A stretch of DNA of 63,829 bases, counting the filler, from Stramenopiles sp. TOSAG23-6 (taxonomy: Eukaryota): assembly GCA_900128565.1 (NCBI GenBank). It is 13 parts of 13 records of this genome, joined end to end, with 100 filler letters (N's around TTAATTAATTAA, not from the genome) between each part and the next. Parts side by side here need not be neighbours in the genome. Positions count along the whole stretch, not along the records: positions 32,501 to 40,509 come from LT636485.1; 12 more parts are not named here. The stretch is one strand, 5' to 3'. Position 1 is the stretch's first letter. The number at the start of each line of letters is the position of its first letter. The notes under the pieces were generated by a model. It had not been told where the DNA came from and ran no database searches. It saw nothing but the letters and a program-made list of their open reading frames with translations. Below are positions 19,656-59,094 of this stretch, piece by piece. A program made the position numbers and the translations under genes.

Positions 19656-19938
19656 TTTCTTTTCAAGAACGGAGGTCAAGAACAACAATATTGAAATATA
19701 TTTTGTCGTCGCGCCGCCGACATTTTCAAATTTTCTTTCAAATAATTTTTCCAACCCTAACCCTAGCTAGTTTTTTGATAGCTAATCATAATAATTATGA
19801 CAGTTTTTTTTTTTCAAATCAAATTTGAAAATTTTTGCAGACGGTCAGAAGAATTCCAAGAACAACACAATACATTGAATACAGTATAAAAAATAAAAAT
19901 TGCTATTACTACATATATATAGGCTATAAGTCAAAAGA

Positions 19939-20877: not shown

Positions 20878-21090
20878 TATGGCTGACATTGCTCGTATCG
20901 ACAATCTGGAATGATTTTAGTAAAATGGTAGTGATTATTTCTTTTCATAAAGGACAGTGATCAAACTGTTTGAAAACACCAGAAATGATAATGTAAATTG
21001 TGAGGAAACAATGAAATCATTTTAATCAAAAAACAACAAAATATTTACCTACTATAATAGTATAATTTAATGAAAGTGATTTTGTTAATA

Positions 21091-21840: not shown

Positions 21841-22119
21841 TACTTTAACAGGAGGAGACTTCTTCGTGAGAGCCCAAATTCATTCCAATCACATGAACAA
21901 ATCGATCAAATTGATCAAAATTGTTGTTTGACGTTTGACCATTCGCAAAGTCGCTTTTCGTTTTTTCATTTTCCGACGGTTGTTTTTTTTTAAATAACGG
22001 ACGTATCATATACCTAAGATTAGTTATATCTGGATCTGGATACGTACGTATACGTAGATCGACGTAGATACTTCTAACCCAAACGTTTGTTGAATATCTG
22101 TAATAATATCAAAAGGACA

Positions 22120-24288
22120 ATGATACGCAGCAGAACACCTCATTTGGATAGAATTGGTATTGAGTCAATAAATCCAACACGGTCCCTTGGTATACCAGTT
22201 GCACAACGACGTCTAAAGGAAATTGTCAAAGATATTAGTGGACAAAGTGAAAGAGAGCCCAACACGGAAAAAAGAAAAGGGAAGCACAAAAACAACAAAG
22301 AAAAATATCATCCAGAAACTCTACTGTTAGCAAAGGTTCCACGAATATCCAAGTCGCAACATAGTGACATATCATTGTGCTTGTCAACTGTGCAGTTATC
22401 ACGTGCACTACCTACTTGTCATTTTTGGATGGTATTGACTTGTATATTGGTCAATGTAGCTTTGACAGTCCTCTGTGCTTGCTTGTTTCGATTCTTCACA
22501 GAATCCTTCACCGCAGCCTACCCATCAACATATCGTGGGCCGACAAATGTCACGGTGTTTGCAAATACGATGCTTTTCCTTGGTGGCTTAGGTATTATTT
22601 CTCATTGTACAATGGAGTCTCTTTTGAGTACTGCTCGACATCGGTTCACGTATATCGCTNCCTCATTGGTAACAGAAGATATGCGCGAGGATGATGACAT
22701 TGAAGCAATGGACATCAGCGTTACTGCGAACGCTTTATTTCATCTTATTCCAGTAGCCTTACATTCGGTGCTTGTATCTATAATATGCACGGGTTTTATG
22801 TTTTATCTAAGCTGGAGACATGCCCTGGTCGAATGTGGCACAATTATTCTAATGGTTATTATATTGGTGTTGTATTCAACATTTATTGACAAGTATAACT
22901 CTGAACGAAATTCAATACATGATAATTCAAATGATCTAGTTAATATTGAACATGAGAAAGCGTTAATCGAACTGAAAAAAACTAATTTACGAAAACGTAA
23001 ATCTAGTCTTAAATCTAGCCGTTCTAAAATTAATACTGGAAATGAATCATACGATGAAAATTCAAAAGAATCAGAAGAATCAGAAGAAGCGGAAGAAAGA
23101 GAAGAAGTTAAAGAAAGGAAAATAATGGCAATCAAAAACTATGCGCTCCAAGAAGTGACGGCATCATGGCATATTGCATATACACTTGTAGTGCTGTTTA
23201 TTTTACTCGGTTCAGTGTATGCATTTATTTTTCTAAGCATCAGTATTGCGGAAGAACAAGACAGTGAACCTAACGTTCTTGTCAAGATTCTTTTACTCTT
23301 TTTTACATTGTCACATTTAAAAACTGCAAATTTTTCAATTCTTCAAATTAGCTCAAATTCTGATTGTATCTCGCGAATAAATGATATACTTTGTAATTCA
23401 GACTTGAATTCGCTATACCGGCATTCAAAATTCAATCTTTCTAGTGACTTAAAAAACGCAATGCATAAAAGGGTTAGTAAACCTAAAGTGGATCGTTCCG
23501 TAATCTACTCTATACATGTAGTATTTGTAGGGTTCATGATTATTTTTATCAATAACTACCGTAGAGGTCTTCGAGTTTGTTCTCCTGAAGTAACAGTGGA
23601 TTGCTCAACAAAATATAACAATACAGAACAATACTGCGGACGTGTGACAATACAACAAGAATTTGACTTTTCATCAGCGTCATGTTTACCAGAAAGTAAA
23701 GACGTTTTATTTGAAAAATGCTATTCTATATGTAAGACATATCCAATTGAAAAATTTGATATCACCTTGAACGCTACACCACTTGGTGATGATATGATGT
23801 CACAAAACCTTCAACCAACATTTTCAATATCAATACCAAAAGAAGAAGGAAACAGACGTAGTCTTCGACGGATACTCCAGAATAAACAAAGGGGGAACCA
23901 AGTAACATATAACAGTGGTAACAGTCCAACGCCAACAAACAATCCAGCACCAGCACCAACACCAAAAACACCAACACCAACACCGCCGCAGGAAACAACA
24001 CAAACAACTCCAGCTAATGCTGGTGTCGTTATAAATGGGGATGGCACTAAAATCTATATGAATTCAGAATCAACAAACGCTCAAACAAACGCTCAAACAA
24101 ACGCTCAAACAAACGCTCAAACAAATGCTCCAACAAACGCTCCAACACCAACACCAACAAAAACACCAACACCAACACCAACAAAACCACCAACAAAAGC
24201 TCCAACAAACGCTCCAACACCAACAAAACCACCAACAAAAGCTCCAACAAAAGCTCCAACACCAGCACCAACACCAGCACCAACAAAA
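22120..24288 (+). CDS. multi-pass membrane Pro/Thr-repeat protein (duplicate)
   Basis: Same as 13991-16159. Confidence 0.7.
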
Positions 24289-24388: not shown

Positions 24389-24585
24389 CCTTTTGTATTG
24401 TAAAAAAAATTTTTTTTTTTTTTTTTTTTTTTTGTTAGGTACAATATTTACTATGAAAAAAAAATGTAAAAAAAAAATCAAAATTTTTTTTTTTTGGTTT
24501 AGGTACAAAATATCGTACGAAAAAAAAAATTAAAAAAATAAAAATAAAAAAAACGAAAATTAAGTGTAGGGTAAAAAAAACGTAC
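24389..24585 (-). other. family intron (3' end poorly resolved)
   Basis: A|GTACGTTTT...TTCGTACGATATTTTGTACCTAA; core appears twice. Confidence 0.6.
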
Positions 24586-24775: not shown

Positions 24776-24900
24776 ATGTATTTTGGAAAAATATTTCAAA
24801 ATTTTTTTTTTTTTTAGTTTCAAAAAAAAAAAAAAAAAAAAAAAAAAAATTAAAAAAAAAAAAAAAAAAATTTTTTAGGTAAAAATTTTTGTATAAAAAA

Positions 24901-24934
<34 letters not shown>

Positions 24935-25004
24935 CTAAAAAAAAAAAAAAAAATTTCTAAAAAAAAAAAAAAAATTGAAAACATTTGAAATGATGAAAAC
25001 AAAC
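24776..25004 (-). other. family intron GT...AT (homopolymer-garbled, possibly chimeric)
   Basis: AAT|GTTTGT ... TCCAAAATACAT|TGT. Confidence 0.55.
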
Positions 25005-25730
25005 ATTTACTTCTCCTGGTTTCTTCAGTAAAGTCTCCCCAGATTTGTTTGCAAAACAATAATATGTTTGAAACATATATCGGCGATATTTGCGTTTATC
25101 AATGAACTCAGTTCCATCTGGAGCTACATATTTTATCACTTCATCAGGTTTCTTTATTTCCTGGACTAAAATTTTTTCGCGAATTACATTTTCTTCCACA
25201 TCCCCATCGTCATAAGTAACTACATATGTTCCATTATCATTGACTTTTGTTACTTTTCCAGGATAATACGTCTGTGTATCTTTGAAGCGACATGTCACCA
25301 TCGAATCTTTCTCAATAGGTCCCGTTTGATCAGCAGCGGCTACAGTTGGAGGGCCTAAAAGTTTAATCTTTTCACGTCCGACATTTGCTTCAGTGTCTCC
25401 GTCATCATATGTTATTGTATATGTTCCATTCAGATTAGTTGCCGTAACTTTCCCCCCATAATAAGTTTCCGACTTTTGAAAACGACAATTCACACGGGTA
25501 CCAACAATAATGGGTGTATTCACGACTAGATGATTACGTGGTACGTTTTCTTCAACTTCTCCGTCATCATATGTCACTTTATATGTACCGTCGTCTGATA
25601 AACATGTGACCTTTGCACCATACCATGTTTGAGAACCTTGATAAGCACATCGTACAAGTGTACCTACGGTAACAACTGCACCAAGGGAGGATCCAGCATC
25701 CGCAGTAGGTGGGGCAGGAGGAACTGACAT
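25005..25730 (-). CDS. three Tudor/Agenet-like repeats followed by the start of an XRP2/TBCC-like domain (first exon)
   Basis: 3x (W/Y)YxxKVT..xxGTYxxTYDDGxxExNV; then YCFANKSGETLLKKPGEVN. Confidence 0.75.
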
Positions 25731-29669: not shown

Positions 29670-31397
29670 ATGAAAAACTGTTACATCAGCATTTTGTCCA
29701 TTGTATGCTTTTCCTTTGTGGCAACAGAAGTTATGTCGGCGCTGTCGTCGGAGGTGAAGCGGGCGGCATCCCGTAGCGCTCTCCGCAATCTCCGTAATGC
29801 GAATGATCGTGAACGACAGTATTCAGTATGGAATAAAACAAAAAATTCAATACGTGAAGATCCAGAGAAGATGCGTAACCTGTTTTTACGACATATTGTT
29901 GCTAAATTTCAGTCACAAGATCCGAAAGAGACAGAAAAGTATACAAAGTTTTTGAAATTGGCACAAACAATTGAACAACAACAGCTTCAACAAAGTAATG
30001 TTCAGTGCCCTTCTGGTCGATTACAACAAACTTTTTTCAACGCATATAATTGTATTCTAAATGCCAAAATGGAACTAGGAGAATTGCGACAACAACAAAC
30101 CAACTTTGAAGGAGCATCTTCAGTATTCTATCCAGAATGTGAAGTAGCCAGAAAAATTTCGAAATGTTTTGATGATTGTTGTGATGATATAGAAGAATTT
30201 GTCAACTTTGCTATGCAAAATGTTGGCAAATATCATGTTCAAAGTTTTTCTGCATCTGAAGTTTGCGATGCTTCTCAATACTACGGCTACAATCCATCAC
30301 AAAAACAATACAAACTCAAATTTGAGTGTCAGCGAAGTGTAGATGATCAAAAGAGGTTTGAGGCACAGGAAAAATTACAAAAACAAATAAAGGAAGAAGA
30401 GGAAGCCAATGCAAGAAGAGAGAAGATAAGGAAAGAATCTCAAAAACAAAGAAAACAGCGACTGGCAGAAGAGAAACAGCAACTGGCAGAAGAGCAACTG
30501 GAAGAGCAACTGGTAGAAAAGTTGCAAGAAGAGACAGAGAGAGCTCAAAATTTTTTGATACAATTGAACAAGGAAATTTCAGACACTCAAGAAGAGGAAA
30601 TGGTCATTCCAAAAGGCAATGTATATGCAAAACAATCAAATGATTCGGATCATACTCTAGAAAAGATGTTACAGAACGGGAAAGTGAAGAAAATTGGTAA
30701 AGTGATGAAAAGTGGTACAGATGGGTTTTTTTATGGAACAGTGAAAGAAAGAGATTTATATGTTGATACATGGTCATCCAAATGTCCTAAAAATGATGGA
30801 TTTATTGACGCCGCTAGATTCCCAGAGAGAGCCAAACTTTGGGATGAACATGTTGCACAAAATGGACTCTGTCTCCGATTTTATTACTGTGAAATGAATT
30901 CATTGAGTCCAAAAGGTGAATTTGTGATACTAAACCCCAAACAGATGATTATTGACTCCCAGTACCAAGATTTGGTGTCAATTTATCCATCATATGCATC
31001 AAAATCAGGAAGAAACAATACAAAAAAGCCAAAGCCCTTTACATTTACACAAGTCACTTTTCAATTTCAATGCATTGTTTCCACAAAATTTGAGCCTAGG
31101 CTACAACAGCGGCAAAAAAAACACGGAACAAACACCACTGGATACTATTACGAAACGATGTATGTTTTATTTTTTTTTTCAATTTCAAATATTTTTTTCG
31201 TACGAAATTTTGTACCTAACGTTTTTTTTTTTGAAAATATTTGTACAAAATACATACTAGGACAGTTTGTATCTAAAGGGAAAGGTTGTGGGAATAAGAC
31301 ATTTGATTTTGATGTAGAATCCAAAATAGGAGGAGACAATGTCCCCAGCTCTCATTTGGAAATGGTAACACGGCATACGAGAACCATCCATTGGTGA
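29670..31397 (+). CDS. hypothetical secreted protein; in-frame family intron 31160-31255
   Basis: Signal peptide, coiled-coil middle region. Confidence 0.7.
   Translation: MKNCYISILSIVCFSFVATEVMSALSSEVKRAASRSALRNLRNANDRERQYSVWNKTKNSIREDPEKMRNLFLRHIVAKFQSQDPKETEKYTKFLKLAQTIEQQQLQQSNVQCPSGRLQQTFFNAYNCILNAKMELGELRQQQTNFEGASSVFYPECEVARKISKCFDDCCDDIEEFVNFAMQNVGKYHVQSFSASEVCDASQYYGYNPSQKQYKLKFECQRSVDDQKRFEAQEKLQKQIKEEEEANARREKIRKESQKQRKQRLAEEKQQLAEEQLEEQLVEKLQEETERAQNFLIQLNKEISDTQEEEMVIPKGNVYAKQSNDSDHTLEKMLQNGKVKKIGKVMKSGTDGFFYGTVKERDLYVDTWSSKCPKNDGFIDAARFPERAKLWDEHVAQNGLCLRFYYCEMNSLSPKGEFVILNPKQMIIDSQYQDLVSIYPSYASKSGRNNTKKPKPFTFTQVTFQFQCIVSTKFEPRLQQRQKKHGTNTTGYYYETMYVLFFFSISNIFFVRNFVPNVFFFENICTKYILGQFVSKGKGCGNKTFDFDVESKIGGDNVPSSHLEMVTRHTRTIHW
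31160..31255 (+). other. non-canonical intron, GT...AT (96 nt)
   Basis: AT|GTATGT...TTCGTACGAAATTTTGTACCTAAC...AAAATACAT|A. Confidence 0.8.
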
Positions 31398-32500: not shown

Positions 32501-32554
32501 TATAAAAATTTTGTACCTAACGATTTTTTTTTGAAATATTTTTCCAAAATACAT
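32501..32554 (+). other. 3' half of family intron
   Basis: TTTTGTACCTAAC...AAATATTTTTCCAAAATACAT; the ORF-track ATG at 32553 straddles this junction. Confidence 0.75.
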
Positions 32555-34580
32555 GAATTCGAATTCTAGTGTATTAAAGGTTGCATCGATATGGTGGGTA
32601 ATGAGTTTAGCTTGGGGAAGTTTGTGTGGTAATGAACGATGGTATAGAGAATTTCGAAAAATATTTATACCGAATTTCGTACCTGGTGAATTGTCAATCA
32701 CTCCAGAATACGTAAATAATCAAAATGATCCAACCAATCAAAATGTTTTGATAAAAATAATTTGTAATTATTTTCTTACTTCATCATCAAATTCATCGAA
32801 CTGTCAGAATTTATATGAAAAACAACTTTCTTTATGTTGTTTTACTGATTGTGTTAGTGTGATTCGAATGCATGACAATTTTAATAATTCATCAAATTAT
32901 AAAACACGAAAAATGCATGAAGAATATAATTCATCAAATTATGAGACAACAAATAATAATTCATCAAATTATAAAACACGAAATATACATGAAGAATATG
33001 ACCAATTGTTCTCTTGTAATTTGACAACACTAATGAAATCTCTTCTTGATTGTATAAATGTTCCTGTTCCAGGTAATAATAATGAAACAATTGAAAGGTT
33101 GAATCAAAAAATACAACAACAAACTATAGAATTAGAAACATTTCATAAAGAGAAAACTGGACAAAAATATGAAAATCAAAATGATATAGAATTTACGGGA
33201 ATAGATAGTATTGCTACTACAACATATGATAATTTCAATAATTCTGGTCAAAACAATACTTCTGAGTATATAAAAGTATTACAAGAACTAAAGAAAGAGA
33301 AAGATACATCTGCACAATTAAATCAAGAACTAAAGAAAGAGAAAGATACATCTGCACAATTAAATCGTAACTTTCAAGATGCTTTGAGAGCTGTAGCCAC
33401 CGAGCGAATGAAAACTGAAATTCTAGAGGGTAGAATAGTAGAAATTGCATCAAGTAAAGTTGTCTCCAAAAACGATACAAAAAGACAAATAACAGATTCT
33501 AACACAAGTATTCGGAGTGTGACTACTGATGCAGTGATTTTTCAAAATCAAAGGCAACACGAGTTTGATCAAATGAAAAAAGAATTGTACATAGAGAAAG
33601 AAAAAAATTCGGCAGTTGAAAAGAAACTCTCAAAATTATATATGAAACTAGTATCGCTAACAAAGTTATATGAAGATACTGTCGCTAAATTAAATAGGGC
33701 AAAAGTTGAGATAGAGAGGACTCAAGAAAAAGATCGTGAAGCTGAAATTTTGGCTGGGCGACTGCAAGAAGTTATGGCAGGAATTCGCAAACAACATTCT
33801 GAGCAACAGTTTGCTTTGGAACAAAGTGCAGAATGGAAAAAACAAAGTATTTTTGAATTATCAAATTTGCGACGTGAATTGGCTGGTGCAAAATGTGAAC
33901 TTTTAGAAAAAGACAGAACAATTGCTGCCCTAGAAAAAAGAGAAGAAATTCAAAAAATACGTTTCGATTCGATAGAAGCTCGTGAGATTTCATTGAATAA
34001 TGAAATTGCGGCCATGCGTCAGGTTGTCAATAAATCAGGTCAAGATTTATTAAAAAAGGAAGAAGAACTCATGGATCATCAAAAATTGACAAAGTTAATT
34101 CATGATCTTAGTGGCAGTCATCAACCTAACCCTAATGTCGGTAATGTCGGTAATGTCTCATATGATTATATTCTTGATCGATCTAGCAGTGAATCTCGGG
34201 GATTGGAATTCTCTGCTGAAGTGATTCAAAGTTTAGACAGGTCAAGTAATAGTAAAGAACGTTCATATTTTAATTCTTCTTCTGGTTTTACTGACGGATC
34301 ATTTCACATGAAGAATGATAACCCTAACCCTAATGATTCAAAACCTTTTTTAAAAATTGATAAAAATCATCATTCACTTGATATATCCGATATGCATCAA
34401 AATAGTCAACCAACATGTAATGAGGAATTTTTATCTGTTCCCGAAAGCAACAATGCCTCAAAACAAGCTTTAAATATAGAAAATAATATCAGTATAGAAA
34501 ATACTGAAGCTCAGCTACTTCTGAGAGATGCCGATATTGCATTGCTGGAGGCTAAACTTGATGGAATCCTTCAAGAGTAA
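32555..34580 (+). CDS. long coiled-coil protein, last exon (5' partial)
   Basis: 675-aa ORF, heptad-rich, with short internal duplications. Confidence 0.7.
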
Positions 34581-34822
34581 TTAGGGTTAGGGTCCCTACC
34601 CTAAACCCTAACCTAAACTTGATGGAATTCTTCAAGAGTAATACACCTAAATTTAATATATATTAATATATCAATATAATACGCGCTCCGCATTGTTATA
34701 TAACATATAAGTACTTATAATTCTTTATATGACGTATGATACAAAAATAAAAATAATGTAACGCTTTTGTTTTGTAGACTAATTCAAATATTGAACATTT
34801 TTATTTCATGCCAAAACTCTGA

Positions 34823-36412
34823 TTAAGGGTTGTCATAAAAACTATCTCTACAACAGTGTATTGCTGTACAAATCTCCCAATCTTCGTAGTCGTGTAAATA
34901 CATCTCAACAAGAATTTCTCCATTTTTGAATAGGAGTGCACAATATTTTACATATTCAGACGGNAAGTCTGAAAAACAGATTGAATCTAAAGCATCCATA
35001 AAATCTGTAAACATTTGTTGATATTCCATAGATTTCTCTGCAGTGGCATTGATGCGAGCAATGTCACGATGTGTCATTCTTTGGGATCGTACTTTCCGAG
35101 ATGTATTTATGGTTTGTCGGATTTCGCTCACACTGACATCTTGGAGGTCCTGGGGACTGAAATTCTTTTTTAAAATATTAGCCGAAGTATCAATACTTTT
35201 GTTTGTAATGCTTTGCGTCGGTAGTGTTGCTTCTGGAAGACCAGTTCCCGGTCCATATTCTACACGGTGTTTTACTGCTGTACTTTCATTCACTTCAAGA
35301 TAGGCTCCAGGATAAGTGCGAAAGTAACCTTGTGATTCACCTGGGGAAAAGTCGACAGTTCCAGGGAAATTCCCTCCTCCACCATTGGCCCAACGTGGCA
35401 CTGCTTTGATATGTCGATCGGCCATTTCTGCAAGATAGGAACACATTACACATTCTGTATCGCGACTGAATAGAGCCGTCATTGCCGCTTTGGCAATAAG
35501 ACTTGGTCCACCCTTTGCATCACCAGCTGCACCAGTTTCACCACCAGCAGCAGCACTACCAGCTTCACCACCAGCTTCACCACCAGCTTCACCACCAGTA
35601 GTATTTTCAGCTTCACCACCAGCTTCACCACCAGCTTCACCGCCAGCTTCACCACTGGCAGCAGCACCGACATCACCAACAGCACTACCAGCTTCAACAC
35701 TTGCAGCAGTATTACCAGCTTCACCAGCAGCACCAGCACCGACAGCAGCACCAGCACCGACAGCACTACTAGCAGCACCAGCACCGACAGCACCAGCACC
35801 GACATCACCAGCGGCAGGAGGAGGAGCGACAGGTACTCCTCCTCCTGCTAAGCCTGTTGGTGGCATACCTGTTGTTCCTCCACCAGGTGTGCTTTTACTC
35901 ATAGTACCAAGTTCAAGAAAGTTTAGTGGTATACTAGAAATGTTGTCATTTGCAAAAAAATTCCGATTTTTTTCCACTTTTTTTATGTCACCATTGTGCT
36001 GGACCATGAATTCTTCCAACATCTTTTGATGTGATACATTNAATTTCTCTTCACTTTCTATAATATTATTTAATCGGGTAGTACTATCACTAAGTCGTTT
36101 TTCTCTGATGTGTTTAAATGCTGGAGGAAGCAACTTATGGAACGGCGGATGTTTTGATCTCATTTTACGTTTTGACTCTGTTTTCAAAGGGTCCACTTCT
36201 AGTCTACTTTTGATCATATGAATGGTATCTTTAAAATTGTTTAAAGAGGATTTGTTGTCACTCGAAATTAAAGTACCCACCTTTGGTTTTCTGACAACCG
36301 ACGGCAAAAATGTTTCCAGCAATTCATTTCTTTTGAGGATACCAACTGCGAATATTTCTTCTATTAAAGTACAAGCGTACCATACCACAACACCGATATA
36401 CAATATGCGCAT
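34823..36412 (-). CDS. secreted protein with Gly/Ala repeats and a split saposin-B-like domain
   Basis: ECVMCSYL...(insert)...IC..P..YVKYC...EICTAIHCC Cys spacing. Confidence 0.7.
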   Translation of the reverse strand: MRILYIGVVVWYACTLIEEIFAVGILKRNELLETFLPSVVRKPKVGTLISSDNKSSLNNFKDTIHMIKSRLEVDPLKTESKRKMRSKHPPFHKLLPPAFKHIREKRLSDSTTRLNNIIESEEKXNVSHQKMLEEFMVQHNGDIKKVEKNRNFFANDNISSIPLNFLELGTMSKSTPGGGTTGMPPTGLAGGGVPVAPPPAAGDVGAGAVGAGAASSAVGAGAAVGAGAAGEAGNTAASVEAGSAVGDVGAAASGEAGGEAGGEAGGEAENTTGGEAGGEAGGEAGSAAAGGETGAAGDAKGGPSLIAKAAMTALFSRDTECVMCSYLAEMADRHIKAVPRWANGGGGNFPGTVDFSPGESQGYFRTYPGAYLEVNESTAVKHRVEYGPGTGLPEATLPTQSITNKSIDTSANILKKNFSPQDLQDVSVSEIRQTINTSRKVRSQRMTHRDIARINATAEKSMEYQQMFTDFMDALDSICFSDXPSEYVKYCALLFKNGEILVEMYLHDYEDWEICTAIHCCRDSFYDNP

Positions 36413-36799
36413 GGTGTCTTCTCTAATGGCGTATATAGATGAGAAATACTTAATGTAATAGGTTCTTCTTAGGGATAATTGGGTTTTTCATCGACAGTAA
36501 TTTATAATGTGTGTGTTGTCGTCTACTATATACTAGCTAAAAGCCTATTTCGGTTCTCTCCTACGTATGAATTAATTTTCAAAAGTTTGCACTTTGTTCT
36601 TCTTTTTTCTTTTTCCTTGTTGAGCAGGTTCGTTCAAAATTAGAATGATAAACAAGATAAACAACGGTCGTATCTTTCGCACAGCCAAAAAAAATTGCCT
36701 TTAGAATAATATATCTACCTTGATATTATAATTATATTCTTTATATCATTTGGAAAGTGAAGCCATAGATTAAATTGATAGTGTTTAAGTTTTATCGGC

Positions 36800-39700
36800 A
36801 TGAAGGAGGCATTGGTGCCCCAATTAAGAGAAGCCTCTAAAAATGGAAGTTCCAAATATCAGCTCTTAAGCCTCTTGTCACCGTTTCGACCACAATTCAA
36901 CACTGTAAAGTCGGATGCTTCAACACCTGGTCACTTACTCTTTAATTCGGAAGTGATAATTCCTAGATGCACTATATATCCTAGTGGTGATTCATTTCAT
37001 TCTACCGAACCAAGGTCTCGTCGATCCTCTGCCGAAGAACTAGCATGCAGCGTNGCACTCAAATCACTACGCAAAGTTGAACATAATCGAAAACGTTTTG
37101 CTTTTCAAAAAAAATTACCAACTCCTACTCTTTTAATTTCTTCAACGAATGGTAAGGGTACACAAAGTCTTCTTCGGATGGTCATGTATGTTCAATATAT
37201 AATGCCAATTATAGCAGTAGTATTTTGTTACACAACTNGTCTTCCAGATTGGTTGAACGCTACAGAACAAAAAGAGAGGTTCGGTTTTGTACGAGAACAT
37301 CCTTTTGTGTGGGACGACTTAGAAGCCATTCTTCATCAACCAGATGTTCAAGGAACTACATCTATATCATCATTATTTTTTAGTGGTAGAGATTTCTGGG
37401 GTCAATTGCCTACTTCAAATAATTATTTAGGTGCATGGAGGCCAGTCACTATCGCTTTCTTTAGGCTCCAGTTTTACTTTACAGGATTATGTATGTTTTA
37501 TTTTTTTTTCAATTAGAAATTACGAATTTATTTTTCGTACGAAATTTTGTACCTAAATATTTTTTTTTGAAATATTTTTCCAAAATACATCGTATTTGAC
37601 TCCAATATTATTTCATACAACTCACNTGTGCTTACATGCCATTGCTGCAAGTTATGTAGTATACATTGCAAACCAAATAATTGATTTAAATGAGACAAAT
37701 GTTAGATGTACCAAAAAATATATGTCCAAAATGCTTACATATTTTGTCAGTTGTGCGTCTGGAATGGCATATGCTGTAGATCCTATACACACAGAAATTC
37801 TACATTATGCATGCGGACGCGCCCAACTCTTGTGTACATTGTTATTTCTTATAGCATTATCGAATGTTTTACAATATCATGGGAAAAGAATGCTTCGTCA
37901 AAAGTCCTTACATAATAATGAAAAAGTTAAGCTTTTTTTTATTCAAGTTGGTCTCAGTTTTTTATGCGGTTTAACTTGTGCCGAAGGAGCTGTAGTTGGA
38001 ATAATCATTGCCGCTGCAGATTTTTTATTAAGTACAAGAAGATTGACACAAACAAGTGAAAAACATGATGTTTTATTACGTACAATTCCACTTCTCAGTC
38101 TGTCATTTACACTGATATGGATCCATTGGCGTTTGATACTTAATTCTGTAGCAGGCCATACGTCTCTTTCACTTTGGGAAAAAATAGAGATTGGCTTTGA
38201 AAGTAACACCCGATTAATTGCACTTGTTAGCATTACTATCTTTGCTTCATTGATACACACAAGTTTACATATACATTGGATTCTGTCTCGATTTTCTATC
38301 GGGTTAGCATCGTGTACATTTGTGACACAATTCTTCTCAGCAACTGCGCCATTGGAAGCTGGGTTTCCAATAATTCCACGACTCAGTTGTTTAGTCACTC
38401 CAGTACGTTATTTATTTATTTCTGAATGTATGAGAAATGTAATAGTTTTAGCTCAAAATTATACAACTTCAAGTCGCTTACATGTAGTAAAAAAGTCAAA
38501 GAGAGTATCCAATATCAGCCTCAATCGTTTCATGTCATGTATCTTTACATCTATGATATCTATCTTTACCTCAAAAACTTTGTTATGTATAGTNGTATTT
38601 GCTCATATTTTACAAATGGGTCGAATGACTGTCACAGAAACATCTTCTTGGAAGAATTCATCAATGAGAAACACGACGCGAAATAAATCAATTAAGTTTT
38701 CATCTAATAATGTGAGACTTCTATATCGACAATCAATTTTATTTTTAGATGCAAGTTATGAAAATAATTATACAAAGAACATTACCACTGAAATGGGTAA
38801 AGAAAACATGGCAAATCTCTTGCAATCAGCTGAGTTTGGTCTTTTAAAAGTTTTACGAATTGAACCACAAAATGCTAAAGCTCTTCTTGGACTGGGTTTA
38901 GTGTACGAAAGACTTGAACTTTTAAATATCAATCTCAAAAGTCCAGTGAAAATGGGAAAAAAATACTTTATTCTTGGGTCATTTCGTTTAGCTGTCGCGG
39001 CCCCGAATGGAAATGTTGGATGGATGCTTGCGACTTTAGGGAAGAAATTAGCATATGGCGGATTTCATATGCAAAATGAAGCAGCGATGCATTTATCAGC
39101 AGCAATACATACTCCACGATTACCTCATCAAAATCGTAGCGAATGGTATCATACACTAGCTGTTGTTGAATTGAGACGCGGAAGGCTCGAAAAAGCAAAA
39201 AAAGTTCTTGCTCAGGCTATATCAGAGATGAATACTTTCCAAACGGATAATACTATACAGGATGTAAATGATGGAAACGTATATGCATTATTGGGTCTTT
39301 TATTATCTAGTCAGGGACAATTTTTACCTGGGGTTGGTTTAATTCGTAAGTGTACAGCATTTCAAAACAATATCTGTAATAATGTACTGAATATTGTATA
39401 CAAAGAATGGTCAAATGCAAGTTCAGTTGAGGAAGGGGAAATAGTCAAAGAGAGGGCAATGAATCAACTCATACAGTTCGTTGGTTGGGGAAAGTACACG
39501 AATGATCTGTTTAACATGCAAAATATAAATACAGAAACTATATTTGATGAAGATTCGGTGAGTCAGGCAGCTTTATGGGATTCATTTGATTGTTCAATGA
39601 ATCTGAATCTTTTGGATAATGAAACTCGTCAAGTGAAAACAAGGCGGGAGTATTTGATACTAGAACTACAAAAAAAGTTGAGAGAAGCTTGTAGTATTGT

Positions 39701-40331
39701 TCATACAACTGAACCAATTTGGTTAGATCAGAGATTAACTATCAAATTTAACGTAGACGAAATTCCACAAGAAGTAATGATTGGTAGAAAGGATGATTCA
39801 TTAATTGCTGCAATGTTTATTTGTAGAGTGCACATGTCTGACGTTGAGCACGAATTATGTATGAAATCTATACTACCAGAAATTATAAATGTACAAAATC
39901 AAGAAAAATTTCAACACATTGAGAAAAACAAACAGGGAAATGATATTGTTCTTGGTGCAATTTGTCGATTATTACTTGAACAGGCTGAACATATTGATAA
40001 ATGTAGAAAATCATTACAACTATACCAAAATGGTACAAATATCTATGATTGGTTGAAACCAAATTCCTTGAAAACATTATTATTCAAAAAGATAAAAGTC
40101 CAGTACAAGATTGAGAGCTATGATAAAGTATTTGGTATCAATATTTTACTTACTGTAGATAATGTTGTTCATAAAGCCCATAATAGATGTTTGGTGCACG
40201 AAATATCAAATATGAAATGTGAAAAATTCATTCAAAATATTCAAAATCAATGGCAAATACAATTTAGACGAATAATTGATGCAAAAAAAGAGACACAAGT
40301 TTTTAATATTTTAGGAAATCTTGTCCAATAA
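36800..40331 (+). CDS. TMTC-like membrane/TPR protein with N-terminal dsRBD-like segment; intron 37491-37590
   Basis: WDDLEAI...PDVQG...DFWG...WRPVT..FRL, P..FH....LH, HTE....GRA.LL, TPR-like helices. Confidence 0.7.
37491..37590 (+). other. non-canonical intron, GT...AT (100 nt)
   Basis: AT|GTATGT...core...CCAAAATACAT|CG joins ORFs 36800 and 37596 in frame. Confidence 0.85.
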
Positions 40332-41381
40332 AAACTTTGATTTTTTATTGTTGTATTGTTTTATTGTTGTATTGTTTTATTGTTGTATTGTTGTATTGCC
40401 TTGATTAATTTTTAATTTTATTTTCAATTTTTTCTTGTTGTCGTATTTCATCCATAATGATATAGATTTTCATCATTGATTTTTTTTTTTTTTTTTTTTA
40501 GGAAATTTTNNNNNNNNNNNNNNNNNNNNNNNNNNNNNNNNNNNNNNNNNNNNTTAATTAATTAANNNNNNNNNNNNNNNNNNNNNNNNNNNNNNNNNNN
40601 NNNNNNNNNATGCCTCTTTTAGATCCAAGTGCTAAATTGAAGCCCAGAAAATTCAGGAAGTGAATTGAAAAACTAGATTTTGCCTTCATTTTGAGTGTTT
40701 TACAGTGGGGAAATTCGCCATGAAATAGTAGAGTTGGCCTTTTAAAGTTAGTATTTTCTGAAACTACATGCAATAATGGTGTATATACCTTGTCGATTAG
40801 GGATGATATTAGTTTTCAATCAACTTTTCAAGGTTTGAAACAAGCTTGGCATGAGAATGTCTAGAATTGACTTGGGTTTGGACAAGCCAATTTACCAAAA
40901 GTCATGAAAAAAATGGAAGGTAAGAAAATTAGGCTTTAAAAGTTTTGCTAAAGGCATCTTTGTAGAGGGTGTAGTTGTTTGTATGACACTGTGTGTGATA
41001 GCAGTCTCCATAGAAGGCTCTATATTGAGCCAACAAGAGACTAAAAAGAGGTCAAAAATTTCCCGTGTTTTACTAGTGATTAAATTTGATTTCAATTTCA
41101 AATTTATAACCTGTTCTTGCGCGCGGTCATTTGTGGTGTGACACGTGGATATACGTGGAATGGTAGTAGACTACTAGTAGTAGTAGTTGGTAGAGTACCT
41201 TATAATCTATACGCGTGATGACACGGATGATATAAAATTATAACTCAACCATCACCCAACGTCATGATAACTTCGCCGAGTGTAATATAAAAATCACTTG
41301 CTCGGACAAACAAAGTGTTATTGTTGATTGTATTGATTCTAAATAATGTTAGGGTTATATAAGTGAAATTTTTGTGTACCA

Positions 41382-48717: not shown

Positions 48718-50348
48718 ATAGTATAGAAAATCATGAAATGGAAAAAGTATCAAAAAAAAGTGTTGGTAATTTTGAAAAAAAACAAAATCTTGATAGTATA
48801 GAAAATCATGAAATGGAAAAAGTATCAAAAAAAAGTGTTAGTAATAGTATGACTTCTGTACAGTTTGATGAAAGTATGAATAATGTAAAAATTACAAGAA
48901 AAGGTCTTTTGAAAGAGCTTCAAAGATATATGTCACCTCCTCCAACAAAAGAAAATGTATATCTCTTATTTTCATCATTTGATTCTCAAGGATGTGGTAG
49001 AGTCATTTGGTTTGATGTTTTACTTTTTTTATCATCAAAGATGTTTTCTTTGTCCAAAGAAAAAATATCAGAGAAAGAAAAACGACGGCATAAATTAAGA
49101 CTCCTTAACAGAGCACAGAGATATCAAACCTTATATAGACATAATATGAAAAGATTAAAGAGGCAGCGACAAAAACAAAAGATACATAAAACAGGTTCTA
49201 TTTCTTCTTTAGGTCTCCTTCATCAAATTCGACAGGAGAAAGGTAGATCCAAAAGACAACAGCGGGGTCAATTGATGCGTCGTTACCACCTTGGTTATTC
49301 TTGTGATAATATTGATGCAAATAAAACAACATGGGATTCCAGTATAATCTGTTCCAAGACAAAATACTTATTACATTCAAACAATCAAAATAATCGAAAT
49401 AGTATTCGACTTGATCCATTTGATTCCGATGTCATGCCAAAACATATTCAGAAGAATACATGTATGTTTATTTTTTTCGGAATTTTTATTTTTTTTCATA
49501 CGAAATTTCGTACCTAACAAAAACAAAAACAAAAATATTTTTCCCCAATACATTAATAGAACATAGAAAAAAAGGTCGCCAAGATAAAAGAAATCGAAAC
49601 AAACGAATTCAAAATACCTCACGTAATCTTTTACATAAAAGAATGAAAAATCCGAAAAGTAGTCCTAGATATAGATTAGGTAGGAAATTTCGTATGAAAA
49701 ACTTACCAAATTATATGAATACAGATATAGATAAAAAACACTACCGAGCAGTGTTATATGCTTTCTTTGAACAATTTGCAATTCATCGTTTAGATGATGT
49801 TGATAGTGTTGTTGAAAGAACTACAGGTGTGGAAAAAGAAACATTTTCTCAATTAGCTACTTTGTTCGATATTCCTGTGAATGATTTTTGGAATCGATTA
49901 AAACTTGAATACGAAATTGAAGAAAAGTCATTGTTAGCAAATTATCCAATTGTATCATCAACTACACGAAATAATCCAATTGTATCATCAACTACACGAA
50001 ATAAGAAAAAAACAAAACGTCCTCGTCGTTCCAGAGATGTTTTTTCTACAACCAAAAAAAAACATTTCGTCAACACAAAACTCAAGATATAAATATGGTA
50101 ATTCTGACGTTGATTTCGCAACTCGAGAAAATGAAAATAATTTTTTCCGAAGTTTACCCTTACATGTCCAGAAGGCGATGCCATTTCTTTCACATGATTT
50201 GAATTTAAGTACTCGATTAATTACAAAAAACAATACAAATGATGATTTGATGCTTCCGAAGTTAAATTCACATCAAGAGTATAAAGATTTTGGAAATGAT
50301 TCAGATAATGCTTCATTTGAAAATGTCGATGAGAGTAATTTTATGTAA
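48718..50348 (+). CDS. hypothetical protein with an EF-hand-like motif (5' partial); intron 49462-49553; probable poly-A frameshift at ~50060
   Basis: LFSSFDSQGCGRVIWFD; ORFs joined by the family intron; third ORF continues after an A-run. Confidence 0.6.
49462..49553 (+). other. non-canonical intron, GT...AT (92 nt)
   Basis: AT|GTATGT...TTCATACGAAATTTCGTACCTAAC...CCAATACAT|TA; the nearest downstream AG would create TAA. Confidence 0.85.
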
Positions 50349-50470: not shown

Positions 50471-51538
50471 TTATTTGTTTTTCTTTTCTACTTCTTTTTT
50501 AATTGCATCTTCCACTTTTTTACATAAAAGATTAGGAACAAGAACAAAATCCGTATTTCCGTATGAATGTATTGTGAAAAATATTTTTTTGCTTTTACTA
50601 AAAAAATTGTTAGGTACAAAATTTCGTATGAAAAATAAATAAATTTGAAATTCATAATGAAAACGTACATACTTTAGTATCGGTTGTTTTTCAGTTATAC
50701 CCATTACAATAAGATCGCCATTTTTACGAGGGATTTTCACAGTACCAACCGAAAAATCCAAAAGGAGATCATCACCATGTAGAGCGGTATCATCCCTGTC
50801 TTGTACGTCACAAGATTTCAGTGTTGAGGAAAATGAAAATTCAGCCGCACCTCTTTCAGTATATGTCGAATATTCTGATATTGGTGAAAATCCTTTTCGT
50901 GATGCAATGAGTTGATATCCAACTGGTCTAAACTCAATGCGGTTGACGGAAGTTGATTCTGGAAGATTTATTAAGAAATCAAGTGCACGAGTAACAGCTG
51001 CAATATCTGGACTCTTCCCTGTAAGAGCAGAAAGTTCATCAACAGATGCCTTTGGCTTTGAACCTTGAAATTTTTCAATGATTCGGTTAATTTTTTTCTT
51101 CATACTATTCAAAGGTTTTTCTACAAATGTGCCTTCAATAGTAGAACTCAAAACGCTGAAGACGCGCCACTTGAAAATACTACTCAGGCTATCGTCTTTG
51201 GCAGTTCCGTCGTTCCCAGTGGCAAGATTAACTACCCCCTGTACGTGGGCAGCATCTCCAGAAAAACTCTTGAAAAGATCAGCAAGAACACGCTCGTTAC
51301 GGTCTTGCATTATGCGATGACATGAAGCAGACTGAAAGTCATCCATCGTAGACATGTCTTCACAAAGGGTGCCCAAGCAACCATTATCACCGCCGCCATC
51401 ACAGTAGCCNTAGAGNTTTGACTTGTCCCGCAAAGCGCGTAGTAACTTTTTTTTTGTCAAAGCTGGTGGTGGATCAAATGAAAGACCCGTAATCAAAGCA
51501 ATAACAAAGACGGTCAAGTAGGTAACAGAGTTCCACAT
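50471..51538 (-). CDS. hypothetical secreted protein; in-frame intron 50567-50668
   Basis: Signal peptide MWNSVTYLTVFVIALITG. Confidence 0.65.
   Translation of the reverse strand: MWNSVTYLTVFVIALITGLSFDPPPALTKKKLLRALRDKSXLXGYCDGGGDNGCLGTLCEDMSTMDDFQSASCHRIMQDRNERVLADLFKSFSGDAAHVQGVVNLATGNDGTAKDDSLSSIFKWRVFSVLSSTIEGTFVEKPLNSMKKKINRIIEKFQGSKPKASVDELSALTGKSPDIAAVTRALDFLINLPESTSVNRIEFRPVGYQLIASRKGFSPISEYSTYTERGAAEFSFSSTLKSCDVQDRDDTALHGDDLLLDFSVGTVKIPRKNGDLIVMGITEKQPILKYVRFHYEFQIYLFFIRNFVPNNFFSKSKKIFFTIHSYGNTDFVLVPNLLCKKVEDAIKKEVEKKNK
50567..50668 (-). other. non-canonical intron, GT...AT (102 nt)
   Basis: TAT|GTACGT...core...CACAATACAT|TCA. Confidence 0.8.
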
Positions 51539-51813
51539 TGTACTAAATGATGTTAAGTTCGTTAAGTTCCAATGCGCTAAAGTATATTTTCTCTCTCTCT
51601 CTCTCTCTCTCTCTCGAGTCAGGTCTCTTTTTGGTCCCGAAGAGTCAAAAAATTCCAAAAATGATTGGAATTAATTCAAAAAATTTGATTTCGTGTTCGC
51701 AGGAGCGAAAAGTTCTCTCTCTCTAGCGACACAAGTTCAAAGTTCAACAACACCAGAATCAAAAGGGGGATATCAAAATTGAATAAATATTACGCTAGCC
51801 TCTGACGCGTACA

Positions 51814-54800
51814 ATGNTTATTGTGTCAATATCACAGAAGTTTCCGAAATTAGTATTCTTCACCCTTCTATATTTTTTACCGAAATTCTCTGAAGCGCTG
51901 TCGATAGATAATTTGAAGGACGATTCGATAGATAATTTTAAGGACGATTCAAATTTACTTGCGACAAACGCTGAAGGCAAAACCTCTTTGGAAGTGTCTC
52001 TACAAAATTTGCTTTTAGCTGGGCAAACATCATTGCCTCTGGATGGTGACTTTTGGTTCACTAAATATCGTAGTGCGGAAAATGGTAACAATAAAAAATT
52101 CAAAAAATGTGAGATATATTCCGAAGTTGTAGTGAAACTAAAAAAAAACAACCAAAACAACGGTGCCTCATGGGTGGCAGGCACCATACTAAAAATAAGT
52201 TCAGATGGATCTATTTTAACAATTAGCTATCCTGGGGGACTTATTAATGCACATATTGATCGTGTGAGGCCATGCTTTCATGCTTTACTACATGGCGATA
52301 ACTCCTCATACAAATCAGAGACCGAACNAAATTCTATAAAAATTCCTCAAAGTTGTTTTTTATCCCAGTGTAGAAAGAAGAAGAAGCTTTGCTATAGATA
52401 TAAATGGTCTGAGACTTTATTCGATAATATAGAACATCATACAACTGAAAAACATATCAATTCATGTAAAGAAGTTTTCTCGAGTGGTACGTCAAAACCT
52501 TCTTTTAATAATATTCCCATTGTCTATCCTCTCAGTCGTAATTGGAATCCAAATTCATTGTTGCTTTGGGGTAAAAGTTGTGAATGTATGTTATTAATTT
52601 CTACTGAACGAGCAAATGAACATTTTCATTGTTATTGGGATGAAAAGTCGTCTGATGAAGTGTATAAAGAATGGGAACATTGTCGGAGACCATTGAATTC
52701 TACCATCGCGAAAACAATACAAAAAAAAACAAATATTACTAGCCAAAGTCAACGAATCAAATCCTTAAGTAATTCAATAATTGATTTAAAAAACATCTAC
52801 AAGGTCAACAATAATAGCACCATATTTGATGAAAATGATAAAAAAATATTTCAAAATCTCTCCCATATGAAAGTGAATATCACATTGGAACAGCAAAAAA
52901 ACGAATTTCTAAATATGAAATCAACAGTTGCAGAAACAATTCGCATTTTTTTAACACCTCAAATTACAAAAGCTCAAAATAAAACACAAACAGAAAATCT
53001 TGAAACAATACACAAATGGAGTTGTAGTGATTCAAATATTACAGAAAAGGAAAATTGTGTAAGTTTTTGCTCTGGGCCAAAAAAAAATGATACAAAAAAA
53101 GTATACGATGACTGCTTTAGTTCTTGCTCAGACGAAAGTATCTATACTACTGATGATTGTATCAAAGCAAAACCGAAGTGGGAGCTTCATAAATGGTACA
53201 ATCAGACATGGGATGACAAAATTAGTCAATGTGTGACTGTTGGAAGTCCAATTACATGGAATGAGAACTTGGATATAAAAGATGGTGAAATACCTACAAA
53301 AGATAAAAAAATAGAAAGATGTAGTCAAGGTGCAAATGTAATTGTAAAATATAATGATACTCTTGGCAATACGCAACGTATTTCTGCAAAGGTTGTACAG
53401 ATTTCGGATTCTTCAGATTTAACAAGGAAAAACACGACACTTCACGTGTCGTATTCTGATAAAGTTACTTATTCACGTGATGATACAGATGTTAAATTAC
53501 CTGAAATTATTCCAATTAGTGATGCTATTCTTTGTACAAATCAATCAAAAGAATATAGTACTGAAGCACAGTGTAAAAAAATGAAAAACAAGTGCCTCTC
53601 TCTACGAGAATTTGGAGATGAATGCCGTGCAGAAAAAGGTTGTATCTTTACATCTCGTCGCAAACCAAACTGTCAGTCTTTAAGTGATCCTTCAATATGT
53701 TCAAATGTTGGTAAAAATGGTGGTACAATAAATAGTGAGACTTGTACAGAAGAAATGCATTGTAATTTTATCTCAGCCAAAGGCAACGAAAAAGGGTTTT
53801 GTACCCAAATTGAAGGTCTCTGTGACATTATTGGTCCCATTGAGAGAGATATTTGCGAAGGTTTAACAGCAATAGAGCATTGCAAATACATTCCTGAGAG
53901 GAAATCAGAATGTGTACTACGCGAAAATTATTGTGAGGAAAATATTATTGAATCAAATTGTATCAATAGTACGACTCAAAAATGTGATGACATTGAAAGA
54001 GCCTTGCAGAAAGAAATGATAAAATTAGATAATTTGTCTGAGCATAACTGCTTTCCATTTTGTAATCACCGTAGTCGAAAGACAAAGCGAGCATGTTTAT
54101 ATGATAAAAGTAGCAGTGGAGAATGCACAAATGGAAAAGATATCAATCAAGAAGAATGTGAAGCATTGGGACCTCATATAATAAAACGAACTTGGATCGA
54201 TCGATATCCAATATACTCTGAATTTAATACAACAAGCGTTCCAAAAGAATTGACATTATCTTTACAGTGGCTAAGTGAATCATTGTATACATATATAAAG
54301 GGAATATTGATGGTTGACGAAAGAATTGCTGTAGAAGAAGAGAAGCACGAAGCTTGGTGTTTACATTCAGAAAATAGCTTAAGAGAAGCACAAGANGGTC
54401 GAAGCAGTAATTCATATGCCTCTGATATTCAAATTGATATAATGAAAAGTCTTCGTACTTTAATCGATTCAATGTGCAATAATTGGTCAATAGATAGAAA
54501 ATTTCAAGAGTTTTCTCGACTCTCATTAATTCAGATTATTACGGAACTTTTACTACTCATTAATCGTGGGCAGAATGATCGAATGATACTGACGTCACTC
54601 CCAGTTGTAGCTTCACAAATCGAAGAATCACATGCAAATGCAAATTTTGTTCCAATTTCGGTATGCTCAACTAAAACTAATACTAGAAGTTCATTTGATG
54701 CCTTTACTGAAAAGTTTAATGTAGCTGCTGAAAATATCCGAGATATAAACAATATCATAATAGAAAGCGATGGATCATTTCAGCCAACGCGAAATATTAT

Positions 54801-56634: not shown

Positions 56635-56721
56635 GTATGTTTTATTTTTTTTCAATTTCGAATTTCTTTTTTTCGTACGAAATTTTGTACCTAACGATTT
56701 TTTTTTGAAATATTTTTCCAA
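56635..56721 (+). other. family intron truncated by contig end
   Basis: AAT|GTATGT...TTCGTACGAAATTTTGTACCTAAC... Confidence 0.8.
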
Positions 56722-59020: not shown

Positions 59021-59094
59021 ATGTCTTTTGAAACAATATTTCAAAAAAAAAACTTAAATTCGTTAGGTACAAAATTTCGTATGAAAAATAAATT
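59021..59094 (-). other. 3' half of family intron
   Basis: core...CAAAAGACAT|CC TGG. Confidence 0.7.

Follow-up and report, generated by a model that had tools for sequence, protein, structure and literature searches.

The window analysed here is a stretch of 63,829 nt from Stramenopiles sp. TOSAG23-6 (NCBI GenBank assembly GCA_900128565.1), and its main subject is an AT-rich element of 100 nt at 37491-37590 on the + strand, which splits a conserved gene of the TMTC type. Positions are counted along the whole window, and a slash within a sequence marks the border between exon and element. The direct sequence across the element reads ggattAT/GTATGTTTTATTTT...TTTCCAAAATACAT/cgtattt. In shorthand the element is AT/GTATGTTTT...AAAATACAT/, and the span 37489-37590 reads AT/GTATGTTTTATTTTTTTTTCAATT...GAAATATTTTTCCAAAATACAT/CG. 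The element begins with GT at 37491-37492 and ends with AT at 37589-37590, and the exon just before it also ends with AT (37489-37490). The features of the locus, with open reading frames (ORFs) and hidden Markov models (HMMs) among the evidence for them, are as follows.

37491-37590 (+): intron or element, GT...AT; its removal fuses the ORF at 36782-37490 with that at 37591-40331
37489-37490 (+): exon-end AT, the same as the intron-end AT at 37589-37590; read from the sequence
37491-37496 (+): donor GTATGT (family consensus GTAYGT, with GT in 16 of 16 copies); position counts
37533-37544 (+): perfect 12-nt palindrome TTTCGTACGAAA, inside the conserved core; read from the sequence and the alignment
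37549-37557 (+): branch-site-like box GTACCTAAA (GTACCTAAC in most copies), of putative function; family alignment
37569-37588 (+): conserved 3' box GAAATATTTTTCCAAAATAC, with the cut two bases beyond it; alignment and position counts
36782-37490 (+): upstream exon of the TMTC-like gene, the 5' limit given being the edge of the ORF; ORF, homologues and HMM
37591-40331 (+): downstream exon of the TMTC-like gene, to the stop codon; ORF, HMM and partial cover by RNA contigs

Two long ORFs in different frames lie on either side of the element, at 36782-37516 and 37557-40331, and excision of exactly 100 nt (37491-37590) puts both into one frame. A search with the last 83 residues of exon 1 against 1.84 billion representative proteins gave 55 matches at E <= 0.001. 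Among four of these homologues that were scanned, three contained PF08409 (TMTC_DUF1736) and three contained TPR repeats. A TMTC HMM was then made from 19 of the 55 matches, all of them long proteins with the match near the N terminus. Positions 23-84 of this model fall in exon 1 and positions 86-157 in exon 2, and the product joined in silico was recognized as a single domain (111.9 bits, E 5.9e-36). The element therefore interrupts a conserved TMTC domain, so that its removal is required for production of the protein. Searches for homologous proteins with exon 2 of this gene and with the exon 55461-55961 returned nothing, and no transcript-derived protein spanning a junction was found in them. 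Because AT stands on both flanks, removal in the registers AT...AC, TG...CA, and GT...AT would yield an identical product. The same copy was also present at this locus in a seawater metagenome of 2024, where a contig starts at 37567 and runs into exon 2 with 12 differences over 1988 nt. Since this DNA contig is independent of the source assembly, the element is present at the same place in a wild relative.

The element belongs to a family with many copies in the window. The window joins 13 contigs, seven of about 8.0 kb and six of about 1.08 kb, through linkers of the form N44-TTAATTAATTAA-N44 (for example at 8031-8130 and 16160-16259). The contig at 8131-16159 is exactly duplicated at 16260-24288 (8029 nt, 0 differences), and after removal of the duplicate 54.6 kb of unique sequence remain; a repeat spacing of about 8.1 kb in the output of repeat finders is an artefact of this layout. 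An nhmmer profile was built from nine complete copies and run with the duplicate contig masked. It gave 24 matches at E <= 0.0016, which correspond to 23 loci and include the nine training copies, and 38 rows at E <= 1. Two further long copies, 58458-58618 and 24776-25010, were found with blastn and by eye, bringing the family to about 25 loci in the unique sequence, or about one copy per 2.4 kb. In pairwise comparison, copies from genes unrelated to each other have 80-96% identity. Six contig ends fall within family copies, and the metagenome contigs also end at the repeat. The summed depth over the element in seawater DNA and RNA contig sets reached thousands, compared with 0-7 in adjoining bins, a figure that is not readable as copy number or expression.

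The copies share one anatomy, in which the donor GTAYGT is followed by a T-rich stretch, a core, a branch-like box, a run of T, and the 3' box TTTTYCACAATAC with two further bases. Two subfamilies are distinguished by their 5' ends, GTATGTTTTATTTT and GTACGTTTTCAT. The core TTTTTCGTACGAAATTTTGTACCTAAC contains the 12-nt palindrome and the branch-site-like CCTAAC; the form of the branch-like box common to the copies in the alignment is TACCTAAC, about 35-50 nt from the 3' end. Position counts over the 16 copies with both ends showed GT in 16/16 and G at +5 in 14/16. At the 3' end of the intron they showed A at -4 in 14, C (11) or T (5) at -3, A at -2 in 14, and T at -1 in 15, and the exons before the copies had A at -2 in 10/16 and T at -1 in 12/16. 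At the site that restores the frame, the last two intron bases were AT in 13 copies, TT in two, and AA in one doubtful case. Typical copies are about 88-103 nt long, and some reach about 150-235 nt.

The orientation of the copies and the frames of their host genes were then compared. Among the 25 loci, 22 lie in the sense direction in or next to an ORF, one is antisense (49665-49706), and two have no ORF context (60468-60543 and 60665-60711). If both directions were equally likely, a sense to antisense ratio of 22:1 would arise with a probability of about 3e-6 by our own arithmetic. With the GT donor and the family-homologous acceptor, the frames rejoin in 14 of the 15 testable complete copies, those at 63076 and 24776 having been read by hand. 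The frame of the fifteenth copy, at 7220, rejoins only if the donor is moved upstream by 4 nt (to ATATGT) or the acceptor by 2 nt. A PDZ gene on the contig part 58010-59094 has four exons over three family introns and is open for all 155 codons, with its exon D covering positions 26-53 of the PDZ HMM. The gene at 51799-56634 has five exons over three family introns and one GT-AG intron and is open for 385 codons, whereas the remaining two frames of its joined exons contain 23 and 40 stops. The length of the copy is divisible by 3 in only 4/16 cases, and together with the stops this excludes translation by read-through.

These results suggest that 37491-37590 is probably one copy of a high-copy, recently multiplied, introner-like family of spliceosomal introns in the nuclear genome of a marine eukaryote. 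An earlier note on this stretch had proposed an introner origin for the element, and the near-identical family with its high copy number, its 22 sense copies among 25, its own donor and branch-like box, and its restoration of frames supports that proposal well. The same copies might instead be plain insertions of miniature inverted-repeat transposable elements (MITEs) that break genes into pseudogenes and are never removed. Any ORF hit recently would by construction be restored once the element and one repeat are excised, and frame restoration alone is therefore no proof of splicing. However, insertions of this kind do not account for the 22:1 ratio of sense to antisense, for several copies per gene with long intact exons between them, or for the RNA contigs over the exons of the TMTC-like gene, and at about one copy per 2.4 kb they would spare few working genes. 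We consider this explanation scarcely credible.

The copies in the window other than that at 37491-37590 are listed below, complete copies first.

31160-31255 (+): copy of 96 nt, AT/GT...AT, placed by the frames
49462-49553 (+): copy of 92 nt, AT/GT...AT, placed by the frames
50567-50668 (-): copy of 102 nt, AT/GTACGT...AT; alternatively an internal acceptor TTTAG, after which a stop codon comes at once
5475-5575 (-): copy of 101 nt, TT/GTACGT...TT
7222-7319 (-): copy with ambiguous ends; one reading is GTTTTA...AT (98 nt), and the other, homologous to the family, is ATATGT...AT at 7220-7323
8157-8244 (+): copy of 88 nt, TT/GTACGT...TT; the upstream exon is only 26 nt long (contig start)
55365-55459 (+): copy of 95 nt, GC/GTACGT...AT, no repeat
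55964-56066 (+): copy of 103 nt, TT/GTTTGT...AT, no repeat
56250-56339 (+): copy of 90 nt, AA/GTATGT...AT, no repeat
63076-63169 (-): copy of 94 nt, AT/GTACGT...AT; an AG 4 nt before the end breaks the frame
58808-58954 (-): intron A/B of the PDZ gene, 147 nt, AT/GTAGGT...AT
58458-58618 (-): intron B/C of the PDZ gene, 161 nt, TT/GTACGT...AT, with CCCTAA repeats at 58589-58606
58191-58341 (-): intron C/D of the PDZ gene, 151 nt, CT/GTACGT...AT; the next exon also starts with GTACG
24776-25010 (-): long copy of 235 nt, donor GTAAAT (exon end AA) or GTTTGT 6 nt inward (exon end AT), ending ...AAAATACAT
24393-24585 (-): long copy, donor AA/GTACGT, with two candidate 3' ends, ...ACAATACAA from the alignment and an AG that lies 4 nt beyond it, where the contig ends
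32501-32554 (+): 3' part, cut by the contig start, ending ...AAAATACAT
56635-56721 (+): 5' part, cut by the contig end, AT/GTATGT
58010-58094 (-): 5' part after PDZ exon D, AT/GTATGT
59021-59094 (-): 3' part before PDZ exon A, ending ...AAAAGACAT
59195-59245 (-): 5' part after a coiled-coil ORF, AT/GTATGT
61563-61677 (-): 5' part, TT/GTACGT, adjoining an exon upstream that we take to be dynein-intermediate-chain-like
60468-60543 (-): copy outside recognised ORFs, with a degenerate 5' end
60665-60711 (-): core fragment outside recognised ORFs
49665-49706 (-): piece of 42 nt with the family core, running antisense to a + strand ORF and reading GTAAGT-core-CTAG in its own direction

Several of these copies have peculiarities of their own. 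The antisense copy at 49665-49706 (-) resembles a miniature GT-AG version of the family within an open + strand frame. Telomere-like CCCTAA repeats, (CCCTAA)3 and shorter ones, lie at 58589-58606 (-) and near 58830 and 58520, inside the family introns of the PDZ gene and beside their CCTAAC boxes; in the intron 58458-58618 the 3' half is tandemly duplicated internally. The intron 58191-58341 carries a 5-nt GTACG repeat in the other register, so that the cut can be moved within 5 nt, and it is the sole such case among the 16 copies. In the copy at 24776-25010 (-), which has a Tudor-domain exon on one side and a PPR-repeat exon on the other, poly-T and poly-A runs of 20-35 nt inflate the length. 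The cut copies 56635-56721 and 32501-32554 share about 42 identical nt, and the contigs that carry them might be neighbours joined through one intron, or the two copies might both be young.

The site at which the copies would be cut was further examined at the 3' end. In the copy at 63076-63169, the frame stays open to the contig end with the AT site, but with the AG 4 nt before the end it runs into a stop after 22 codons. By eye, no AG stands between the CCTAAC box and the end in most copies. Canonical introns are also present in the window. The GT-AG intron at 11311-11406 (-), GTAAGC...TAG, contains CCTAAC, and the match to positions 3-35 of the MIT HMM stops at it. Another, at 56466-56558 (+), GTAAAT...CAG, lies in the same gene as family introns. 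Since GT-AG introns occur in the same genes, the non-AG acceptor of the family would have to be accepted by the same U2-type spliceosome or by a relaxed one. Judging from the sequences, we conclude that the elements are spliceosomal-type introns whose acceptor would be YAT in most cases (CAT or TAT in 13) and CTT in two.

A register shifted by 2 nt would turn the copies with AT on both sides into AT...AC introns (ATGTATG...ATAC), removed by a minor U12-type spliceosome or by one that tolerates AT-AC ends. The shift gives the same mRNA in 7 of 15 copies, and A as the first and C as the last intron base are known to work together. In at least five copies, with exon ends GC, TT, AA, and CT, the shift is impossible and only GT...AT keeps the frame; for the family as a whole, both AT...AC and GT...AC are ruled out by the frames. 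The U12 donor box has the consensus ATATCCTT or GTATCCTT, with the branch box close to the 3' end. In the copies, the 5' end ATGTATGT (donor GTAYGTTTT) is unlike this box, and the branch-like TACCTAAC is set back from the 3' end by about 35-50 nt. In addition, GT is invariant (16/16), whereas the two bases preceding it vary. We regard U12-type or other AT-AC removal as very unlikely.

Under the spliceosomal reading with GT...AT ends, each copy would supply a donor GTAYGT, a branch-like box TACCTAAC, a T-rich tract, and the 3' box TTTTYCACAATAC. The donor would be recognised as usual, as GTAYGT fits the U1/U6 consensus save for the T at exon position -1, and the branch would form at TACCTAAC. 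The site of the second step would then follow the ...CACAATAC box by two bases and the branch box by about 35-50 nt, in a stretch usually free of AG. The cuts in the RNA would thus fall at the GT and after the two bases that follow the 3' box, mostly behind YAT and in two copies behind CTT, so that the mRNA would retain exactly one copy of the dinucleotide and the frame of the host gene would be restored. The antisense and non-genic copies could be accounted for by insertion at the DNA level, followed by selection against antisense copies in genes. A further proposal, which we put forward tentatively and hold to be doubtful, is that the dinucleotide itself is not recognised and the 3' cut is set by distance, two bases beyond the ...CACAATAC box, so that any duplicated 2-bp target (AT, TT, perhaps AA) serves as the acceptor. 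If such a ruler-type acceptor exists, a DNA transposon could make an exactly excised intron anywhere. It would also mean thousands of GT...NT introns in an abundant marine eukaryote, with an AG-independent second step alongside GT-AG splicing.

Transcripts were sought for the contig stretch 32501-40509 among assembled contigs from three RNA sets and one DNA set, with 15 of 97 joints listed. RNA contigs covered parts of exon 2 of the TMTC-like gene (37820-39587) at a depth of 2-3.7. Several points stand against this reading or limit it. No contig joins 37490 to 37591 among the 15 listed joints of 97. The RNA contigs carry element ends attached to exons, as unspliced RNA or DNA in RNA libraries would. 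Frame continuity sets the removed length only modulo 3 and leaves the exact cut free. In the chemistry of the second splicing step, GT with AT is an unusual pair of ends. Joints that link 32528-32558 with 37487-37531 were rejected as junctions, being cross-matches between two copies of the repeat. Because no junction stands among the RNA joints listed, we infer spliceosomal removal at the RNA level and the exact acceptor base rather than observe them.

A different kind of removal would also agree with the want of a spliced RNA junction among the listed joints, namely elimination from DNA, or non-spliceosomal removal from RNA guided by short repeats, as for the internal eliminated sequences of ciliates or the nonconventional introns of euglenids. 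In the available text of PMC11282704 and PMC12621601, short junction repeats and non-AG ends also typify those systems. The spliceosomal-type donor GTAYGT (GT 16/16) and the branch-like box speak against removal of this kind. The assembled source DNA contains the element, as does the independent metagenome contig at the same locus, and the window reads well in the standard code. Folding gave minimum free energy z scores of +1.8 to -2.3 for copies of typical length (40 mononucleotide shuffles each), and pairing of the ends appeared in about half of the copies, in varying registers. The folds do not support a conserved RNA structure between the ends, as there was neither a consistent terminal helix nor stability. 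Elimination from DNA or non-spliceosomal excision therefore appears a distant prospect, and spliceosomal splicing of GT...AT introns remains the reading that we favour.

The origin of the dinucleotide on both sides of the copies was then analysed. One copy of the 16 with both ends, 24393-24585, was dropped because its 3' end is set by alignment only, with an AG 4 nt on and the contig end there, which leaves 15 usable copies. The exon-end dinucleotide equals the intron-end dinucleotide in 9/15, seven times as AT with AT and twice as TT with TT. In the six mismatching copies, the exon ends GC, TT, AA, TT, CT, and AA stand before introns ending in AT; the sixth of these, at 24776, turns into an AT match if the donor is the GTTTGT 6 nt inward, and the dropped copy would be an AA match if its aligned end is correct. 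In coding sequence the background frequency was 0.098 for AT and 0.086 for TT, and before GT it was 0.121 and 0.110. Compared with a chance of 0.10-0.12 per intron, 9/15 matches have P of about 1e-5, and 10/16 matches have P of 4e-7 to 2e-6.

The earlier note had counted 8 matches in 14 complete copies and read them as a 2-bp target-site duplication (TSD). The repeat itself is confirmed, but most of the excess of matches arises because AT is the consensus of both the exon end and the intron end. When the intron ends were shuffled among the 15 copies, the mean was 6.6 matches and P(>=9) was 0.057, with the same P for alternative boundaries; with four ambiguous copies removed, 6/11 matched (P = 0.11). 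Further points count against a duplication. Position by position, the matches were 12/16 (0.75) at -2 and 13/16 (0.81) at -1, compared with 0.57 and 0.71 from cross-pairs. Over the 16 copies there was no repeat signal at -3 to -5. The intron end AT is kept in five of 15 copies with differing exon ends (GC, TT, AA, TT, CT). All six donors of the GTATGT type, complete or cut, are preceded by AT, which fits AT as part of the element or as a preferred context as well as it fits a TSD. The boundaries were picked with the pattern known, so that the count may be biased, and the alternatives at 7220 and 24776 shift it by one in either direction. In the other register, where the intron start would equal the start of the next exon, there was no signal across the 16 copies, barring the GTACG at 58191-58341.

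The AT kept before differing exons, the AT ahead of all GTATGT donors, and the permutation values are what would be expected if the same mobile family were spliced as GT...AT introns with no TSD at all, the AT being part of the element and the exon AT or T an insertion or splice-site preference, as in reverse splicing or in an insertion mechanism that makes no staggered cuts. The consensus across the intron (exon -1 T in 12/16 and -2 A in 10/16) and the small margin of the matches over the cross-pairs agree with it. The available text of Gozashti et al. 2022 (PMC9860276) calls a pattern of this kind "ambiguous" under its relative-match criterion, a TSD being inseparable there from an insertion-site or splice-site consensus. 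On the other hand, an origin with no TSD does not predict that both introns ending in TT follow exons ending in TT, and reverse splicing into mRNA does not predict antisense copies or copies outside ORFs. The cut exactly two bases past the conserved box is also the expected remnant of a 2-bp duplication. We therefore rate splicing of the family with no TSD as rather unlikely, while the weight is far from negligible. Locus-specific support for a TSD comes only from the two copies with TT on both sides. A 2-bp TSD accounts for the cut two bases past the box, for the TT introns after TT exons, and for the antisense and non-ORF copies, and insertion at the DNA level with 2-bp duplication of an (A/T)T target is on balance marginally favoured.

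The termini bear on the same question. In the copy at 37491, ATGTAT and ATACAT are reverse complements; the earlier note had remarked on GTAT and ATAC. Complementarity of 7-8 out of 10 terminal nt was found only in the copies at 31160 and 37491, both of the GTATGT subfamily, and in the GTACGT subfamily only 3 nt of the termini (GTA and TAC) are complementary. Over the 16 copies, mean terminal complementarity was 3.75-4.8/10, compared with 3.0 (sd 1.55) in internal control windows. There is thus no terminal inverted repeat (TIR) across the family, which weighs against a TSD, and since inverted termini are confined to the youngest subfamily, a 2-bp TSD is plausible at most. Among 91 ORF translations of the window, no Pfam family of a transposase, integrase, or reverse transcriptase was found, in agreement with the note on the transposase and likewise counting against a TSD. 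The inverted termini that the note described are therefore a property of the youngest subfamily and not of the family as a whole. Its more specific model, a MITE with TIRs and a 2-bp TSD that supplies the acceptor, is plausible but goes beyond what these copies show, as AT is kept in five copies with other exon ends and a family TIR is absent.

The window as a whole has eukaryotic character, with 29-41% G+C per 2-kb bin and long ORFs in the standard code. Its recognised domains include EF-hand, Fasciclin, AAA, KH/Smr, Tudor, GrpE, PPR, SH2, WW/IQ, and MIT. The stretch 32501-40509 was found in seawater metagenome and metatranscriptome contig sets, which indicates that the organism inhabits sea water. 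Searches with Rfam (gathering threshold) and ARAGORN gave no match anywhere in the window. The 19-nt core gave 0 matches in viral_contigs, three in metagenome_contigs, all unrelated, and one in genome_contigs, in an unrelated bacterial metagenome-assembled genome.

Some other observations were made in the window. An ORF at 60880-61461 (+) has two SH2 domains (PF00017, E 6.5e-22, 2 stretches) and runs past the contig end. At 10258-11637 (-), an AAA protein has an ATPase part that is nearest to CbbX among solved structures (E 2e-42), and its first exon carries the MIT match. Coding tandem repeats were seen at 4517-4793 with a period of 24 nt, and at 15907-16180 and 35494-35800 with a period of 12 nt, the last of these encoding GGEA-type repeats. 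Two in-frame TGA codons were also noted, in coding frames that are unbroken but for them. One, at 9659-9661 (-), lies within a Fasciclin domain, where the match to HMM positions 2-49 stops three residues before it and that to positions 53-123 resumes two residues after it. The other, at 59949-59951 (-), lies in a coiled-coil ORF that is open for 109 codons upstream of the TGA and for 252 downstream. No equivalent cases with TAA or TAG were seen in plausible coding frames, and the two TGAs could be sequencing error, read-through, or rare sense TGA.

A family of this kind would be a natural experiment on the choice of the 3' splice site, and it could test directly whether the target duplication of a transposon becomes a splice site. 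The organism, which is uncultured, is common enough to be assembled from seawater metagenomes. For annotation, gene prediction that insists on AG will fragment most of this genome's genes, and for assembly, the repeat breaks contigs, as seen from the six contig ends inside copies.

Bursts of intron gain are at present best explained by introners, and most described families have canonical ends. In the open literature that was searched, no family of GT-AT introns was found described for marine protists or for single-cell genomes. In Micromonas pusilla and Aureococcus anophagefferens, introners are thousands of near-identical short introns that carry one splice site and leave the mRNA unchanged after removal (Worden 2009 and Huff, Zilberman and Roy 2016, as described in PMC11282704, PMC9860276, and PMC7789003). 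The TOSAG23-6 family is like them in its near-identical introns in unrelated genes and in the proposed splice site at a duplicated target. However, those introners have TSDs of at least 3 bp, clear TIRs, and GY-AG ends, whereas the present family has a 2-nt repeat, no family-wide TIR, and an AT or TT acceptor. The introners of Chrysochromulina sp. bring the donor, and the duplicated target becomes the acceptor (PMC9860276). This architecture is that of the model in the earlier note, and the setting, marine plankton, is also shared, but the TSD is 4 bp and the acceptor canonical there, compared with 2 nt and a non-AG acceptor here.

Non-canonical ends are described in three further systems. In Fritillaria borealis, MITE-derived introns have AG-AC and AG-AT ends, the AC end comes from a TAC in the exon ahead of the intron, and a modified U2 spliceosome is described (Henriet et al. 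2019, as summarised in PMC11282704; PMC13326754). A non-AG acceptor taken from a short exonic repeat is common to both, and AT acceptors are frequent in that animal. Its introns have a non-GT donor and reported TIRs and TSDs, whereas the protist-like family described here has the canonical GTAYGT and a branch-like box. The introners of Amoebophrya are non-canonical, with direct repeats of 3-5 nt over the exon/intron borders and inverted repeats of 8-20 nt that form hairpins (Farhat et al. 2021, PMC7789003). They are repeated introns with direct repeats at the borders and, as here, no family transposase was found, but they have no conserved end dinucleotides and do form hairpins, whereas in the present family GT is invariant, a hairpin is absent, and the repeats are 2 nt. 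The nonconventional introns of euglenids and diplonemids have short direct repeats and non-canonical ends (PMC12621601, PMC11282704). The copies in the window depart from that type, in which the borders are not conserved and the ends pair, as they have GT in 16/16 and no consistent pairing of the ends. The TOSAG23-6 family thus differs from the systems compared in having an AT acceptor and a 2-nt repeat together with a donor and branch box of textbook form, without TIRs or hairpins.

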